DNA of 64,000 nt, taken from positions 58,342,001 through 58,406,000 of the forward strand of contig OX597822.1 in the NCBI GenBank assembly GCA_951406725.2, in the 5' to 3' direction. This document shows, piece by piece, positions 26,681 to 53,377 of the stretch; positions within the stretch are counted from its first letter, which is position 1; every line of letters starts with the position of its first letter. Under the pieces are notes generated by a model that saw only the letters and a program-made list of their open reading frames with translations, had not been told where the DNA came from and ran no database searches. This DNA comes from Octopus vulgaris (lineage: Eukaryota). The translations under genes were made by a program, and so were the position numbers.

Positions 26681-26955
26681 ATCATCATCATCATCATCAT
26701 TATTTAACATCCATTTTCCATACTGGCATGGGTTAGACAATTTGACCAGAGCTGGTAAGGCCAGGGGCTACACCAGGTTCCATTGTCTGTTCTGGCATGA
26801 TTTCAGCAGCTGGATGCCCTTTCTAATGCCAACCACTCCAATGTGTACTGGGTGTTTTTTATGTAGCACCAGTGCCGATTTTTTTAACATGGCACCAGTA
26901 TGAATGCTCTAAACGTGGCACTAGCATGAGTGCTTTTTATGTGGCATCAGCACAA
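26681..26955 (-). mobile_element. RTE-tail element with ~26 bp tandem units
   Basis: (CAT)n tail, 'ttttccatactggcatggg', 'gctggatgcccttt', then four 'tttt.atgtggcaccagc'-like units. Confidence 0.7.
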
Positions 26956-32529: not shown

Positions 32530-33311
32530 ACCATGCCTGTGTATTGAAAAATATTGCTTCCCAACCACTGGTTTTGGGTTCAGTCCCACTACACACTACT
32601 TTGAGCAAGTGTCTTCTACAATATAGCCGCAGGTGTGGCTGTAGTAAGAAGCTTGCTTACCAACCACATGTTTCAAGGTTCAGTCCCACACCATGATACT
32701 TTGGGCAAGTGTCTTCTACTATAGCCATGGGCTGACCAAGGCCTTGGGCTTGGTAGACAGAAACTGAAAGAAACCCGTTGTATGTGTATGTGTGTGGGTG
32801 CATTTATGTCTGTGTTTGTTCCTCCCATCACTCCTTGACAACTGGTGTTGGTATGTTTACATACCAGTAATTTAGCAGTTCAACAAAAGAGATTGATAGA
32901 ATAGGTACTAGGCTTAAGAAATAAGTTGTGGTGTCAATGTGGTGCTCCAGCATGGCCACAGTCAAATGACTGAACCAAGTAAAAGAATATAGCCACAGGC
33001 CAACCAAAGCCTTCTGAATGGATCAGGTTGACAAAAAACGGAAAGAAGATATCATGTGTGTGTGCGCATGTGAGTATATGTACCCTTGTTCAGACATCAT
33101 GTAATAGTTTAAAATAGTCCTTACAAGCAAGGTTTGCTTGTTTCTATCCTTCTGTAAAAAACATGTCTAGCTATGGGAAACTGGCTTGGGGCAGGTCAGA
33201 GTGGTGACAGGAAGGGCATCCAGCTACAGAAAATCTGCCTCAACAAATTCCACCTGACCCATGCAAACATGGAAATGTGCACATCAAAACAATGGTGATG
33301 GTGATGATGAT
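32530..33311 (+). mobile_element. SINE family B interrupted by a family A SINE
   Basis: Head to 'gtcttctacaatatagcc', resumes 'acaggccaaccaaagcc' at 32995, ends 'ggaagggcatccagct...gatgatgatg'. Confidence 0.7.
32629..32985 (+). mobile_element. SINE family A, nested, 9-bp TSD
   Basis: TSD aatatagcc at 32620-32628 and 32986-32994; full head-to-tail copy. Confidence 0.85.
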
Positions 33312-36822: not shown

Positions 36823-38485
36823 GTTAGTTAGTTAGTTAGTTAATTTGGCTCAAAAGCAAATAGCAAGGCCATGTAGGGGGACATGGAGTTAAGTACAGGG
36901 TGGTGTTCATGTAAAGAGTTCAGGCCACTTGAGGTCCAGGGAGGCTTTGAACAAAGCGATCGTCGGCATCTTCACCATCTCGTCTGGCAGCTTGTTCCAC
37001 GGATCCGCAACCTGGACGGAGAATGCTCCTCTCCTTCGATTGAGATGAAATCGTCGCAGGTAGAGCTTTTCGGAATGACCCCGCAGCCGACGCTCCGGAG
37101 CAGGAGTGAAGAACAGCTCTTTCGAGAGGTTACACTTCCCGCTTATGATGTGGGCGAGAATGAGATCACCACGGCGGCGGCGTTTTTCAAGAGAATAAAG
37201 GTCGAGCGTCCTCAGCCTTTCTTCGTAGGACAAATTTTTGAGACCATGAACCATGCGGGTAGCCAGCCTCTGGACTCTTTCGAGATGCTGTATGTCTTTG
37301 AGGAGATAAGGAGAAGAGGCTTGAATCCCATACTCCAATATGGGTCTCACCAGCGTGACATAGAGTGGTAGGAATATGGCTGCTGTGAGCATTCCGAATG
37401 ACCGTCGAATCAAAAACAGAATTCCGCGCGCTTTGTTGGCAGCATGGACGCACTGGGCCGAAGGCGAAAAGGAGGAATCCACCAAGATACCCAGGTCCTT
37501 TACCTGATCGGTCCTCTCCAGCAGCAGACAACCCGGCTCGAAATCAAGTTGAGTTGCAGGAGTAGAGCCGACAGGCAGATGACAGCACTTTGACACGTTC
37601 AGACACAGGTCCCAATCGTTAGACCACTTCCAAATTTGGTGGAGGCATCGACGAAGATCCTCTATACAACCGCGAGGAGCGACCAGTTTGATATCGTCGG
37701 CAAATAGAAGGGTGTGTTGTGTGAGGTCGTCGGGCAAGTCATTTATGAAGACTAAGAACAACAAGGGCCCAAGCACTGAACCTTGAGGCACGCCACTGCT
37801 CGCAATGGAGACGTCGGACCGCGAACCATTAACTTGAACTTGGAAGGAGCGATCTGAGAGGAAGGCACCAACCCATCGTACAATATCCGGATGGAAACTA
37901 TATGCTTGAAGCTTGACAAGTAGTAGGCGGTGGTTTACCGAGTCAAAAGCTTTGGCAAAGTCCAATAAAACGATGTCAACAGCATCACTATCATCGAGGA
38001 TGCGCGTCACCAATTCTTCCATTACTAGTAAGTTGGTCAAGCATGATCTCTTCGGCACGAAGCCGTGTTGGGAATCAGTGATCGAGGCTGTGTTTAGGAG
38101 GTGGAGCATCATACTTTTCTTAAGGATGGTTTCGAACATCTTGCTGATTATTGATGTAAGGGAAACCAGTCGGTAGTTAAGCGGGTCTTCGCGGCTCCCT
38201 TTCTTGAAAATTGGGCAGATTATCGCTGTTCTCCAGTCTGCAGGTATAACACCCATCGCCAATGACATATTGAATAGTCGTGTTAAGGGCTCGCAGATGA
38301 CCGGAGCCAACGCTTTGATAACCCGTGGGTGTATGCCGTCAGGGCCGTGACCCTTGTTGACATCGAGGCCTTGAATAACACGTTTGACTTCGTCCCGCGT
38401 GATGATCAATCGAAGCATTGGAGGTACCGATCTATCAAATGGAGGGGGTTCACGACCATCATCTTGTTTGAAAATAGTTGAAAAT
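36823..38485 (-). mobile_element. 5'-truncated CR1-group LINE, young
   Basis: Open RT frame, short 3' UTR, (TAAC)n tail at 36823-36843; GC- and CpG-rich against AT-rich flanks; endonuclease and ORF1 absent. Confidence 0.9.
36907..38418 (-). CDS. LINE ORF2 fragment: reverse transcriptase and C-terminal domain
   Basis: Motifs GPDGIHP, QHGF...SC.TNL, LDFAKAFDSV, GVPQGSVLGPLLF, FADD, LERVQR.ATR, WN.LP; frame continues upstream to ~38484 (FSTIFKQDD), so the Met is internal. Confidence 0.9.
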   Translation of the reverse strand: MLRLIITRDEVKRVIQGLDVNKGHGPDGIHPRVIKALAPVICEPLTRLFNMSLAMGVIPADWRTAIICPIFKKGSREDPLNYRLVSLTSIISKMFETILKKSMMLHLLNTASITDSQHGFVPKRSCLTNLLVMEELVTRILDDSDAVDIVLLDFAKAFDSVNHRLLLVKLQAYSFHPDIVRWVGAFLSDRSFQVQVNGSRSDVSIASSGVPQGSVLGPLLFLVFINDLPDDLTQHTLLFADDIKLVAPRGCIEDLRRCLHQIWKWSNDWDLCLNVSKCCHLPVGSTPATQLDFEPGCLLLERTDQVKDLGILVDSSFSPSAQCVHAANKARGILFLIRRSFGMLTAAIFLPLYVTLVRPILEYGIQASSPYLLKDIQHLERVQRLATRMVHGLKNLSYEERLRTLDLYSLEKRRRRGDLILAHIISGKCNLSKELFFTPAPERRLRGHSEKLYLRRFHLNRRRGAFSVQVADPWNKLPDEMVKMPTIALFKASLDLKWPELFT

Positions 38486-39459
38486 AGTTTGAAAATACTT
38501 CTACAAGAAGCAAAAGAGCAGATTATACAATCTGATCAGATGAAAATTGAGGCAAGGCACAGCAGTCAGGCAGTAACAAATAACAGAGGTGATGCATGCC
38601 TCTGGCACCTCTAACTGACCTTTCAGAGATAGCTTTCCTTGAACATTTGTGTATAACTTGACCACCCAGCTCATCCAAGTTTCTATTCATCTAGCAGTCA
38701 GGCCTCAACTACACCCCAAGAACTTTTAAAAGACTTGTACATGAGAAAGTAAGACTAAGATTGAAATGAAAATAGAGAAAATGGTTGGGTGATAAAGCAG
38801 TTGTATCATGAAGTGAAGTGATGGCATTCAGAGAAGCGTAAACCATTTTAGGAGGGAAACAAAAAGAGGATACAGTTTAACAGTGAACCAGTGGTATGCT
38901 CTTTTGTGTGGTGATGAGGGTGAGTTTGCCATAAGGAAGAATAATTGACTTTTACTTTTTTATGACTTTGTAGAGCAGCATTCATGGCCCTTTCCAGGGC
39001 CTCTAAGATAACTAGCAAGAACTGATCCTCAAACTACAGATTGGCCCAAATACTTGCTGCAGAGGGGGCTCTAAAGTAAGAACAGCCTCTTGAGTGGTTT
39101 CTATTATGGCTTCTATCTAAAACATTTCACTGACAAGTCTTTGGTTTAATAGCTTTGTTATTTGAAATAAATTTATTTATCAAGATAGCATGTCAGCTCT
39201 CCATGGTAAAGTAGATCTGGATTTTTTAGCTTTTAAGGCAGAAACTATATATTCGTTCTCAGTATGGCCTAAGTTTGTGATTTTAGGATGTACCATAAAA
39301 CATGTAGAGTAACTATCAACTTCAACATCATTTATAATTTCTAAGAAGTTGTGGAGAGGCAAGGATGTAAAGGCCATGGGTATGTGGGTGGCAGACTTTA
39401 TCTGTTGCTCAGTTTAATATTACCAACTGATTCTTGGGTGACCTTAGCCATGTCCCGTT

Positions 39460-41378: not shown

Positions 41379-41630
41379 ATCATCATCATTTAACGTCTGT
41401 TTTCCATGCTGGCATGGGTTAGATGGTTTGACAAGAGCTGGTAAGCCAGAGCTGCACCAGGCTCCAGTGTCTGCATTGGTTTGGTTTCTATGGCTGGATG
41501 CCCTTCCTAACACCAACCATTTTACAGAGTGTACTGGTTGCCCTTTTATATGTCACTGGCATGGGGCCTTTTTGCATGTCACCAGCATGGGGGTGCATTA
41601 TGTGTCACTGGCACAGGTGCTTTTTTACAT
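41379..41630 (-). mobile_element. RTE-tail element with ~25 bp units
   Basis: 'atcatcatcatttaacgtctgttttccatgctggcatggg'...'ggatgcccttcctaac' plus repeated 'tatgtcactggca'. Confidence 0.75.
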
Positions 41631-41694: not shown

Positions 41695-42048
41695 GTAGGC
41701 ATGGTTTCAGGGTTAGTCCCACTAATACCTTAGGCAAGTGTCATCTACTAAGTGTCATCAAGGCCTCATGAGTCAAGTTAGTAGACAGAAAGTGTGTGTG
41801 TGTACCTGTAACTGTCTCCTGGTCCTGATGCCATATGATAGTTGTAAATGAGCATCACTGTCATACAAGCAGTCTCCTTTGCATCCAACCTTACATGAAA
41901 ACACATCTGGCAATGAGGAAATATTACCTTACTTGGAAACAGGTGAGGGTAGTCGAGACAGAAGGGTACCTGTTGCAGAAAAATCTGTCTCAACACATTC
42001 CATCAGGTACAGAAAAGTGAACATTAAGTGATGATGATGATGATGATG
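41695..42048 (+). mobile_element. SINE family B
   Basis: 'gggttagtccc', 'ccttaggcaagtgtc', 'gaaatattaccttacttggaaacagg', (GAT)n tail. Confidence 0.65.
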
Positions 42049-42317
42049 TGCTTGTATATGTGTATTGAAGTTTGAGTTGATTGGGACAAACAGCTAAATT
42101 CACTAAGGTATTAGTTAACTCGGGTTTTTGGGGCTATTAATGCCTTATAAGTGTCTTTCACCCCTTTAGTATTCAGTCAAATGTAATACTTATTTATGCA
42201 GATTTTATAAAATTAATCCTATATTATCTTGTAGCTTTGATATTTTGAAGATACAACATTGCTGGATAGCTGTGAGAGGCCTGATCTGGTCAGTTTTAGC
42301 ATATATATATATATCAC

Positions 42318-44056: not shown

Positions 44057-44976
44057 AGCATGTGTGCGAGCTGCCATGCTAGATGGCAGTGAAACATGGG
44101 CCATGAATGCTGAAGATATGCGTAGGCTTGAAAGAAATGAAGCTAGTATGATCCGCTGGATGTCTAACAACAGTGTGTAAGCACCCTGACAGAAAAGTTG
44201 GGCATACGAAGAATCAAATGTGGTGTGCAAAAGAGGTGACTGCGCTGGTATGGCCATATGTTGCATATGAATGAAGACAGCTGTGTGAGGAAGTGCCACT
44301 CCCTAACTGTAGAAGGAACCTGTGGAAGAGGTAGACTCAGGAAGACATGGGATGTGGTGGTGAAGCATGACCTTCAAACTGTGGGCCTCACAGAGGCAAT
44401 GAAAGGAGACTGGGACCTTTGAAGATATGCTGTAATTGAGAAGACCTGGCAACTAACGTGAGACTGCAGCTATGCATGCCTGGCCCTGTTAAGAATACCC
44501 CTGAAGCATCAGATGATATATGCTTGAGAGGACCTGTTGAGTCAAGTAAAACCAATATTGTAGCTGGGGCTAGTGACCCGATTGGCTCCTGTGCCAGTGG
44601 CACGTAAAAAGCACAATCTGAACGTGGTCGATGCCAAGTCCACCTGACTGGTTCCTGTGCTGGTGGCATGTAAAAAACACCAACCGATCATGACTGATGC
44701 CAGTACCCACCGACTGGTTTCTGTGCTGATTGCATGTAAAAAGCACCATCTGAATGTGATTGTTGTCAGGCCCGCCTGACTGGCTCCTGTGCCGGTGGCA
44801 CATAAAAAGCACCCATTACACTCTCGGAGTGGTTGGCGTTAGGAAAAGCATCCAGCTGTAGAAACTTTGCCGGATCAAATTGGTGCCTGGTGCAGCCGCT
44901 GACTCTCCAGACCTCAGTCAAACCATCTAACCCATGCCAGCATAGAAAATGGATATCAATCAATGATGAAGATGAT
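44057..44976 (+). mobile_element. RTE-clade LINE 3' end: ORF C-terminus, long 3' region with 66-bp array, (GAT)n tail
   Basis: Broken frame ACVRAAMLDGSETWAM...RLERNEASMIRWM...LRWYGHM...GRGRLRKTW; array units at 44582, 44648, 44714, 44780; tail 'aatgatgaagatgat'. Confidence 0.85.
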
Positions 44977-46328
44977 AAATACATACATGCACACACACAC
45001 ACACACGGGTGTCTATATATATATATATATATATATACACATACATACATGTGTGTATGTATGTGTATGAATGTGTATATATACATATATACATAAACAC
45101 ACACACACATATGATGTATACGCTGCATGTATATATAGATGTGTGAGAATAAGGAGGCACGACAAACTATGTAGAAATGTAGATCGACCACCCATTCTAA
45201 AGAGAGCTTTCCTCTCAAATAACCTAGAAACAGTAAATTAAAATATTTGCTGATGATATAATTCACACACCAGCCAGACATGAGAGGTTTTAGCTTATTT
45301 CACTTAAGTTTATTCATTTTTCTTTATTTGTTTGCACATTTTTTTTTCCTTTTTTCTTTTTCTTTTTACTCTTTATTACATCAAATGGAAATCTCTTCCA
45401 TCTGAGATTTCATCCTGGGTACAAGTTATTTACCAAAATCCCAAGCAAGAAATGACACCTTGTGTGTATGTGTGTGTTAATGATATTAGCTATCAATGAG
45501 ATGTTGAAAAACTGAATATAACTTAACACTATGATAATATGTCACAGCCAGGAATATAAGACAATTGAAAGGAAAGGATATATGCTATGCATTTGACTGT
45601 ATGAATGAATGAATGAATGAGTGTGTGTGTTTAAGTATATATGTATGTATGTAGTTCCACTGCATGGCACCTTGAGCAAGTGTCATCTACTACAGCTTCA
45701 GGCCAACCAAACAAAGCCTTGATTGGATTTGGTAGATGGAAACTAAAAGAAGCCCATTATGTGTGCTTGTCCTCCACTACTGCTCAACAATTGGTGTTAG
45801 TGTGTTTATGTTCCTGTAAATTAGTAGTTTGGCAAAAAAGACCGATTGAATATGTAGCAAGCTTGATGAAAGGTAAGTACTGGAGTCAAATCATTCAACT
45901 AATATTCTTCAAGGCAGTGCCACAGCATGGCCACAGACTAATGAATGAAACAAGTAAAAGATATATACATACATATACATAGAAGCGAGTGAACAAACAA
46001 AACAAAGTGGCACTCAGAACATTTGATAGGAGATACATTTTTTTTTTAATAACAGTTTGACTTATCTGATGAGGTAGGTTCATCCTATGAGCCCACAGAA
46101 CTTTTAAATCATATGGAACTGAATCAAACTCTTATGATATATATATATATATACATAAATATATATACATAAAATCATCATCATTTAGTGTCTGCTTTCC
46201 ATGCTGGCATGAGTTAGACAGTTTGACTATAACTGGTAAATTGGAGAGCTGCACCAAGTTCCAGTCTCATTTGGCACTTAGTACAGCATGGAAAGTAGAT
46301 GCTAAATGATGATGATGATATATATATA

Positions 46329-47517: not shown

Positions 47518-48765
47518 AAGGGGTTAGACAAAATAATGGAAACACCTAGCATCATAAGTTTGAAATATTTATAAAACTGTCAAAAGCTTGTTTATTTTTA
47601 TGTTTTTTGATTTATTATTAATGTTGCTTAATATGTTTTGCTAAAATTGCTGTTCCTTTTCAGATATCATCAGAAAAAGGTAATTAAAATTCATTATAAT
47701 GACAGATCTATCGGACTTTCAAAGAGGTAAAATTATTGGTGCTCATATGGCAGGTGCTAGCATAATGAAAACAGCCAAAATGTTTGGTGTATCAATAAGT
47801 ATGGTCTTGAAAGTAATGACAGCCTTTGAGAAAGAAGGAAAAACCTCCTCGTCGAAACAAAACTCCAGAACAAAATCAACACTCTCAGATAGGGACCATC
47901 AGACTCTTATGCGAATTGTTAGAAAGGATCACAAAAGTACAGCAGAGCTTAATGACCACCTCGAAAACCCAGTTTCCACAAAAACTGTTCGCCAGGAGCG
48001 GCACAAAGCCAGATTTCATGGGAGGGCTGCAATCAGAAAACCACTGCTTTCAAAGACAAACATTGCAAAGCGTTTAGAGTGCAGTAAAAACCTACAGAAT
48101 TGGTCCCTAGAACAGTGGAAGAATGCGATATTCTCCAACGAGTCATCCTTTACCCTATTTCCAACCACCAGCCAAGTATATGTGTGAAGACAGCCAAAAG
48201 AAGCATTTGACCCAGACTACTTTCTTCCAACTGTTAAACATGAAGTAAGATGTGTGACGATCTGGAGGGACTATATCTTGGAAATCTGCCAGCCCAATGG
48301 TTTCCCTTCATGGTAGAATTAATAGTCAAGACTATTTATGCATTTTATCTGATCAAATTCATCCTATGGTTGCAGAACTGTTTCTGGAGGGAAATGCAAT
48401 CTTTCAGGATTATAATGCATCAATTCACACAGCTAAAGTTGTTACTGAATGGCACAAGGAACATTCTAGTGAAGTTAAATATCTTATCTGGCCAGCACAG
48501 TCCCCAGATCTCAATATCATTGAACATTTATGGGGCATTTTAGAAAAACAAGTAAGGAGTCAATATCTTCCACCATCAACACAAGAACTGGAGACTGTTT
48601 TAGCTGAAGAATGGACAAAAATTCGTTTGGAAACAATTCAAACTTTGTATGAATTCATACCTCATAGAATTCAAGCTGTAATTACAGCCAAAGGTGATCC
48701 TACCTAATATTAAAATAACTTTGTTTGAAATTTTAAGGTGTTTCCATTATTTTGTCCAACCCCTG
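47518..48765 (+). mobile_element. Full-length Tc1-like DNA transposon, inactivated
   Basis: 30-bp TIRs 'aaggggttagacaaaataatggaaacacct' / 'aggtgtttccattattttgtccaacccctg'; TA at right end; ~1.25 kb. Confidence 0.92.
47699..48707 (+). pseudogene. Tc1-family transposase pseudogene (D..D36E spacing)
   Basis: DLSDFQRGKIIG HTH, RKPLLS, FSNES, PTVKH, FQDYNASIH, WPAQSPDLNIIEHLW; stop at 48185-48187 and a frameshift near 48270. Confidence 0.9.
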
Positions 48766-52374: not shown

Positions 52375-52834
52375 ATCAAAATTAAAATTGCCGACATAAC
52401 CGATGACAGTACTGCCTGATTGGCACTCGTGCCAGTGGAACATTAAAAGCACATCCGAGTGCGATTGGTGCCAGGGCCACAGATTGGCTCCTGTGCTGGT
52501 GACACATGAAAAGCACCATTCAAGCGTGATCGTTGCCAGCGTCGCCTTACGTGTAAAACAACATTTAAGCATGGTTGTTGCCAGTGCCGCCGGACTGGCT
52601 CCCGTGCAAGTAGCACATAAAAACACCTTTTCAGCATGACTGGCCCTCATGCAGGTGGCACATAAAAGCACCCACTACACTCTTAGAGTGGTTGGCGTTA
52701 GGAAAGGCATCCAGCTGTAGAAACTTTGCTAGATCAGATTGAGCCTGGTGCAGCCACTGGCTCACCAGTCCTCAGTCAAACCATCCAACCCATGCCAGCA
52801 TGGAAAGCGAACATTAAACGATGATGATGATGAT
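52375..52834 (+). mobile_element. Short RTE-3'-end element with partly deleted array
   Basis: Units at 52420, 52484, a truncated one at ~52548, 52595, 52640; shared tail and (GAT)n. Confidence 0.8.
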
Positions 52835-52890
52835 AGAGAGAGATAAACTACATTTTTAAATATATTAAATAACGGCCTTCCTGATGATCA

Positions 52891-52939
<49 letters not shown>

Positions 52940-53327
52940 ATCATCAGGAAGGCCGTTATTTAATATATTTAAAAATGTAGTTTATCTCTCTCATCATCAT
53001 CATCATCGTTTAATGTTCGCTTTCCATGCTGGCATGGGTTGGATGGTTTGACTGAGGACTGGTGAGCCAGTGGCTGCACCAGGCTCAATCTGATCTAGCA
53101 AAGTTTCTACTGCTGGATGCCTTTCCTAACGCCAACCACTCTAAGAGTGTAGTGGGTGCTTTTATGTGCCACCCACATGAGGGCCAGTCATGCTGAAAAG
53201 GTGTTTTTATGTGCTACTTGCACGGGAGCCAGTCCGGCGGCACTGGCAACAACCAGGCTTAAATGTTGTTTTTCACGTAAGGCGACGCTGGCAACGATCA
53301 CGCTTGAATGGTGCTTTTCATGTGTCA
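52500..53327. repeat. Long inverted repeat: ~390 bp arms around (TA)n
   Basis: 52500-52890 is the reverse complement of 52938-53327 with about five substitutions and one 2-nt indel. Confidence 0.95.
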
Positions 53328-53377
53328 TGCTTTTCTGTAATTTCCGCTCAGAGCCTCGGTCATGCTGATGCACTGCC

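Follow-up and report, generated by a model that had tools for sequence, protein, structure and literature searches.

Tandem copies of a predicted pseudoknot module in the 3' UTR of an abundant octopus RTE element, and their counterpart in the 5' UTR of related elements

How a short structured repeat came to lie between the coding region and the tail of an octopus retroelement, and what it might do there, is the question raised by positions 44,057–44,976 of the window, a 64,000-nt stretch of Octopus vulgaris contig OX597822.1. Unit starts (TGG) fall at 44583, 44649, 44715 and 44781, an exact 66-nt spacing, and TRF delimits the array at 44576–44813 (period 66, 3.6 copies, 74% matches), between the end of a broken RTE ORF (stop 44459–44461) and the remnant of an (ATG)n tail. 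A sequence-only reading of this DNA had described four units at exactly this period as a tandem module in an RTE 3' UTR, and both period and placement are borne out. The fourth unit is partial, its sequence changing after CACC with no closing GCCAG. The parts of the module core, in which GGTG and CACC would form stem 2, and their surroundings are given in Table 1. The window copy is decayed: it shares 89.5% identity with the majority of its 29 closest copies, with damage to stem 2 in both unit 1 and unit 3. Elsewhere in the window, near-identical element 3' ends lie inverted around a (TA)n tract (52413–52835 and 52990–53330), a 542-codon RT frame at 36907–38535 (−) belongs to what we take to be a CR1/L2-type LINE, and 47684–48187 (+) is presumably a fragment of a Tc1-like transposase.

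Table 1. Parts of the element 3' end carrying the array (positions in the window)
Feature	Position	Strand	Basis or remark
3' remnant of RTE LINE ORF, 5'-truncated, with frameshift and stops	44058..44461 (start approximate)	+	
3' UTR start, subfamily-specific	44462..44568	+	common to the 29 closest copies
Predicted linker hairpin before unit 1 (GCCAG-type arm/following CTGGC arm)	44569..44586	+	
Module core 1: stem 1, loop base, GGTG, stem 1', A-rich loop, CACC	44590..44615	+	stem 2 damaged
Module core 2	44656..44681	+	sequence
Module core 3, GGTG decayed to GATT	44722..44747	+	sequence
Module core 4, intact	44788..44813	+	gap-free alignment to the module found once on the 5' side in L062, L095 and L186
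Short predicted hairpin CACTC/GAGTG, between module and domain	44819..44831	+	
Conserved GGTTG..GGAAGGGCATCC..GTA(G/A)AA domain, the 5'-UTR domain of related RTEs	44831..44872	+	
3'-terminal stem-loop, common to distant relatives	44924..44954	+	
(ATG)n tail remnant	44963..44977	+	sequence

The block is among the most abundant repeats of the octopus genome. A 25-nt core pattern, allowing up to two mismatches, finds 14 matches in the window against 0.01 expected, and its exact form occurs 31,264 times in the whole genome (reversed pattern, 0). In a search with a unit profile, 40 evenly placed 10-kb stretches yielded 41 units (reversed control, 0), a density of about one per 10 kb, or by extrapolation roughly 3x10^5 units. 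Forty scored copies, from 10,152 candidates, span most of the query at 81–85% identity excluding the self-match. A protein search of the genome yielded copies with open frames of up to 1276 codons, and the array stands between ORF and tail in 19 of 20 long-ORF loci that were fetched. Unit number depends on subfamily, from one in older families to more than ten, and unit sequence varies as well. The array is also present in contigs of four sequencing runs; it had no match in the viral contigs searched, and an exact pattern for the old family returned nothing.

A representative protein of 1046 aa (locus L050) consists of Exo_endo_phos followed by RVT_1, that is, a single ORF with an AP endonuclease and then an RT, and the 3' stem-loop is followed by a short tandem-repeat tail, as in RTE elements. 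Many of the protein's homologs carry a PHD finger (PF00628), and the top homolog comes from Octopus bimaculoides. We assign the element to the RTE clade by its architecture and C-terminal motifs, an assumption on our part as the tree contains unnamed relatives only. Near the ORF start in L042, L043 and L050, the endonuclease sequence is immediately preceded by a pyrimidine tract ending in CAG, which resembles a splice acceptor. In the accessible text of two reports, RTE-2_OV is described, in contrast to the present element, with a 3' UTR that is mostly microsatellite (PMC9115989), and active RTE families are catalogued without structure (PMC13282606).

Comparison with related elements supplies the main clue to the origin of the block. 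Among 79 metagenome loci taken as relatives, the sequence after the ORF was inspected in 35; none has an array there, and by eye approximately 31 end within about 150 nt of the stop codon. The sequence directly 3' of the octopus array is instead found as a 5'-UTR domain in seven of eight near-full-length relatives, the eighth lacking its 5' end. The first ATG, 26–32 nt past this domain, starts an ORF of 983–1106 aa in six of 12 loci; in the other six the first frame after the domain is short or cut. The sequence-only reading had missed that the array block is part of the 5' UTR in related elements. In a FastTree phylogeny of 21 sequences (untrimmed, midpoint root), the seven octopus proteins form one clade, sister to L062+L072 with support of 0.99 and nested among relatives with short 3' UTRs.

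Both the domain and the terminal stem covary. The nested helix of the domain is 97.9% paired over 25 sequences, four of its eight pairs are changed on both sides, and none of 500 shuffles reaches its paired cells and score; in the terminal stem (15 sequences), 93% of cells are paired and four of five pairs are changed on both sides. The shuffle counts are not probabilities, since each structure was drawn on the alignment with which it was scored, and the sequences are related to one another. A possible pseudoknot helix in the domain is 49–72% paired, with zero two-sided changes. The domain shows clear covariation and matches no Rfam family. Short non-octopus elements (L186, L191 and L195) keep the domain together with the 3' stem, and many short elements have the domain without the octopus module, so the module is not generally required. 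Other octopus short repeats (window ~41880–42050 and 33100–33300; L202 and L205) share the domain and terminal stem ends behind a different upstream hairpin, and at G000:C15:71095410-71096415 the domain itself is tandemly arrayed with a 47-nt period.

In the relatives, the slot ahead of the domain is filled by different structured sequences in different loci. Three of them (L062, L095 and L186) have the octopus module in this slot, once, in gap-free alignment from stem 1 to CACY. A module pattern, composed after these loci had been viewed, occurs in three of 36 domain-bearing non-octopus loci against 0.014 expected. The gap between module and domain is 15 nt in all three and 17 nt in octopus. 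Stem 1 is swapped in L062 and L095 and missing from L186; L062, with its single swapped-stem-1 module, belongs to the clade sister to octopus. With the unit profile, 230 kb of non-octopus loci yielded no relative (two hits at E 2.6), so homology of the modules rests on position and structure.

The slot may also hold a ribozyme. In L193 it is occupied by a match to twister-P1 (63.9 bits, E 7e-13, under the gathering score of 67.2) and in L199 by a weak one (31.9 bits), and twisters occur at RTE 5' ends in Schistosoma, according to the accessible part of PMC8501958. This shared slot, together with CTGTGCCGGT, common to L199 and the octopus unit, would favour the module being a self-cleaving ribozyme or a still-active twister derivative. 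We regard this as extremely improbable: the array has no twister match, it lacks three parts of the Rfam RF03160 consensus (UAA cleavage loop, UCCC loop, GAGGG strand), and cleavage would sever the ORF from the priming end, yet the 19 of 20 long-ORF loci run through the array to the tail, which makes self-cleavage unlikely. In L193:419-498 (−) and L199:347-406 (+), both apparent animal RTE DNA within bacterial genome records, the 3' strand of twister-P1 overlaps the GGTTG start of the domain. The 5' UTRs of L064, L068, L129 and L180 hold another slot module, in which a TGCCTT hairpin loop could pair with a later AAGGC; it contains an inserted hairpin of the GGTG/CACC type, is tandemly duplicated in L068 and has no match in Rfam.

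The octopus element itself begins differently. In none of 30 octopus 5' ends does the shared region contain the domain; at two loci a domain lies about 1 kb off, and the one inspected is part of an adjacent insertion. Of the 30, 19 have a TATA-like motif, and in all eight loci chosen (L241, L243, L246, L247, L254, L255, L259 and L238) the 5' sequence repeats at 550–715 nt. These TATA-like monomers are, in our estimation, reminiscent of the promoter monomers of rodent L1. Because relatives carry module and domain in the 5' slot and octopus has a different 5' end, the block has likely moved, with amplification of its first module; that a 5' RNA block was relocated to the 3' UTR is a step in which we have considerable confidence.

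We propose a model for this relocation whereby the octopus lineage would have acquired a new 5' end of tandem TATA-like monomers, the new promoter supplanting the ancestral 5' UTR, and the 3' end would have been replaced through capture of a bipartite derivative consisting of the 5' block and the 3' stem-loop. Such derivatives are common in RTEs, as far as the accessible portions of PMC5786205 and PMC7245038 indicate. One of their traits, a 5'-UTR part joined to the 3' end, is seen in octopus, where the domain precedes the 3' stem; another, absence of the ORF, is not, as the octopus block follows long ORFs. The first module may then have expanded by slippage or unequal exchange from the one copy of older subfamilies to more than ten, with hairpin linkers between. 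By analogy with the pseudoknot in the R2 3' UTR, block and terminal stem-loop might serve protein loading or template selection, and extra module copies might raise avidity or be simply tolerated. Taken whole, the reading of the array as relocated 5' modules, each a predicted H-type pseudoknot, that may provide a cis-acting handle for the element's own protein is one to which we give an even chance.

The module could instead derive from the Nin/Deu SINE domain, of which it would be the 3' part, taken over from a Deu SINE with an RTE-type tail. By eye, 15 of 16 bases of the bivalve BivaMD-SINE1 primer agree with the last unit, which also matches the 5' stem arm in the BivaMD-SINE1 consensus, as far as both are given in the accessible part of PMC4824008; EbuSINE2 bears the label tRNA-Deu-RTE5' in that of PMC5786205, and tRNA-Deu SINEs are listed for O. 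vulgaris in Table 1 of PMC13282606. The likeness spans about 30 nt by eye, however, versus 70–120 nt for the whole Nin/Deu domain, and the Deu loop is about 8 nt longer. Among 44 motif matches in the genome, the 30 inspected are mutated array units without Deu SINE context, and the position-anchored match in L062, from the sister clade, is closer in layout. A Deu origin is improbable in our judgement yet a live alternative, and the possibility raised by the sequence-only reading, that the module is a known SINE domain such as Nin/Deu, keeps this partial likeness in its favour. A likeness to the Meta domain was rejected, the SINE resemblance lying in the Deu part (PMC4824008, accessible part). 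Descent from an RTE 5' UTR and from Deu could both be correct if Deu itself came from an RTE 5' UTR.

By our prediction the module folds as a small H-type pseudoknot, a model that the evidence favours to a modest degree. The core is conserved over 26 unit types, which represent 536 of 866 units, and among 23 inner unit types non-CpG variation is 0.03–0.07 in the core versus 0.21 in the spacer, a contrast inflated by the relatedness of the types and their recovery with a core-seeded profile. In the sequence-only reading the pseudoknot had rested in part on free variation at loop 1. The loop-1 bases of the window copy (C, T, T and C in units 1–4) reflect CpG decay only, and the variation is real at the level of subfamilies: last units have A49/C43/T26/G22 (n=140), so that 71 of the 140 carry a purine (A or G), as do 25 of 214 inner units. 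In an older family, 22 of 31 copies have a C at the helix junction, by which stem 2 becomes GGTGC/GCACC; the junction C thus extends stem 2 and breaks the simple hairpin. This family repeats the bare core at 25–26 nt (21 spacings), and in a further unit type GGTGC/GCACC is retained in hairpin form (18 pattern matches). Tandem 26-nt arrays of bare core from an older family that shares the domain and tail also lie at 26886–26952 and 41540–41592 of the window and in L140. In the young arrays of L044, L049 and L050, GTGTC..GGCAC and GTGCC..GACAC units alternate, and their arms pair perfectly between neighbours.

Over seven sequences, three of the five pairs of stem 1 show two-sided changes, which come from just two relatives, with a slid control nearly as high. 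Stem 2 is 96% paired, with one-sided C>U changes only and no two-sided change, and a register slide of −2 scores 0.254 versus 0.280 for the proposed register. The proposed GGUG/CACC pairing draws indirect support from the junction variants that extend it and none from two-sided covariation, and a GGU-triloop hairpin, the predicted nested fold of L062, L095 and two of the four window units, competes with it. In a program that cannot form pseudoknots, the predicted folds of the window units are no more stable than those of shuffles (z −0.12 to −1.18). Some fixed unit types break the fold: two have a C-A junction pair, one lacks CACC, and two first units have AACC.

These observations bring in a more neutral alternative, namely that the module has the same origin and is a plain hairpin with no 3' role, carried beside a needed domain and stem-loop, the array being neutral slippage homogenised by recent amplification. 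Copy number from one to more than ten, fixation of degenerate types, the triloop as predicted fold in the loci named above, and an element 5' end that is likewise tandemly repeated all agree with it, and slippage could be seeded by GCACC, two copies of which lie around the last core at a distance of about 26 nt. Against it, conservation across unit types is some 3–6 times higher in the core than in the spacer, a triloop-breaking A or G stands at loop 1 in half of the last units (the 71 of 140 above), and the whole core is kept in two repeats of differing size. We consider the neutral hairpin unlikely, while giving it more weight than any other rival.

The helix of CUGGC and GCCAG, drawn earlier as enclosing each pseudoknot, was placed in the wrong register. 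GCCAG stands downstream of the last unit in none of 238 cases and upstream in 194 of 214 last units with CTGGC; where inner units lack CTGGC, the upstream arm is also missing in 65 of 87. Since CTGGC tracks the upstream GCCAG, the outer helix is best read as an inter-unit linker hairpin, and this predicted hairpin recurs ahead of every unit.

As for function, the likeliest role for the block is that of a cis-acting handle by which the element's own protein would recognise its RNA, a suggestion that we advance tentatively and by analogy: according to the accessible part of PMC12180492, the R2 protein binds a pseudoknot in the 3' UTR, and pairing is required. Other roles put forward in the sequence-only reading, a block to 5'-3' exonuclease of the XRN1 type or a stall of RT, make different predictions for truncated copies, whose junctions serve as a genomic proxy for RNA 5' ends. 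An RT stall would put copy starts just after CACC, and an exonuclease stop would put them at stem 1. The counts leave out elements that continue upstream or lie at the profile edge (101 of 205 and 71 of 115). Just after CACC, four of 148 junctions were found versus 16–20 expected, fewer than an RT stall would leave. At the 5' edge of stem 1, 14 of 104 discovery junctions versus 5.2 expected (p=0.0007) favoured the exonuclease block, yet a replicate set in advance gave three of 44 versus 2.2 expected (p=0.38), a small set with which a weak effect would be compatible, and the pooled value is p=0.07 with 2-nt microhomology in the null. The excess was therefore not replicated. The array also has no Rfam match and no known xrRNA fold, and we hold either of these roles to be very unlikely.

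As the sequence-only reading had proposed, the array was compared with Rfam, and it matches no family. Searches of Rfam with eight relatives gave no relevant family (three unrelated weak hits), and those with ten octopus 5' ends gave only microsatellite-driven miRNA hits. No description of the array or of the domain was found in literature titles and abstract openings, the scope of that search, with Repbase and Dfam outside it; these probably hold the octopus element as a consensus. It is, apparently, a known kind of element with an undescribed rearrangement and RNA block. The arrangement bears on how RTE proteins select their RNA and on why RTE-derived SINEs retain a piece of the 5' UTR: an autonomous element with a 5'-UTR piece at its 3' end suggests that the piece works regardless of position. 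A bolder generalization, to which we assign a rather low probability, would be that RTEs carry, beside 5' ribozymes, an undescribed position-independent structured block needed for protein loading or translation, which octopus moved to the 3' UTR after TATA-monomer promoters arose and whose pseudoknot it multiplied into a multivalent binding array. If that were true, about 10^5 insertions would carry such an array, and the module might also be ancestral to the Nin/Deu SINE domain. The octopus arrays supply natural variants for a direct test of position independence.

Several known systems invite comparison. Luteoviral frameshift pseudoknots and flaviviral xrRNAs share with the predicted octopus fold short stems, a 1-nt first loop and an A-rich last loop, the latter RNAs being repeated in the 3' UTR, and a luteoviral −1 frameshift signal has its slippery heptamer just upstream, within an ORF. 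The octopus array differs in being non-coding, with no slippery site before the core, no three-way junction, no Rfam match and no replicated end signal. The likeness to luteoviral pseudoknots that the sequence-only reading drew therefore does not extend to a frameshift context, as the sole slippery heptamer, at 44672, lies in the A-loop. With the Nin/Deu SINE domain, as presented in the accessible part of PMC4824008, the module shares similar hairpin arms and an A-rich 3' run; that domain differs in its longer loop, its tRNA-headed SINE context and in being unrepeated. Twister-P1 at RTE 5' ends (Perere-3; PMC8501958, accessible part) occupies the same slot directly before the same domain in L193 and L199, whereas the octopus module lacks the twister core and is located in the 3' UTR. 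The pseudoknot-hinge-stem of A-clade R2 elements (PMC12180492, accessible part) is similar in that a LINE 3' UTR has a pseudoknot, here a predicted one, ahead of its terminal stem. Clade and protein are different, and the R2 pseudoknot is a single copy next to the 3' stem, whereas the octopus module, a putative pseudoknot, is multimeric and more than 100 nt from the stem. A further parallel is with RTE LINEs and the bipartite derivatives of that clade (Kojima 2018, PMC5786205; Kojima 2020, PMC7245038), as far as their accessible portions describe them. The motif GGCATCC was not found in one supplementary file of PMC5786205, so the octopus domain is apparently not the Ceph/RTE domain of that paper, of which this file is a part. 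Shared are the single endonuclease-RT ORF and the microsatellite tail, some RTEs carry a conserved 5' domain twice, and short derivatives have 5'-UTR parts joined to the 3' end; in octopus, by contrast, it is the protein-coding element that has the block, within its own 3' UTR and with one module amplified.
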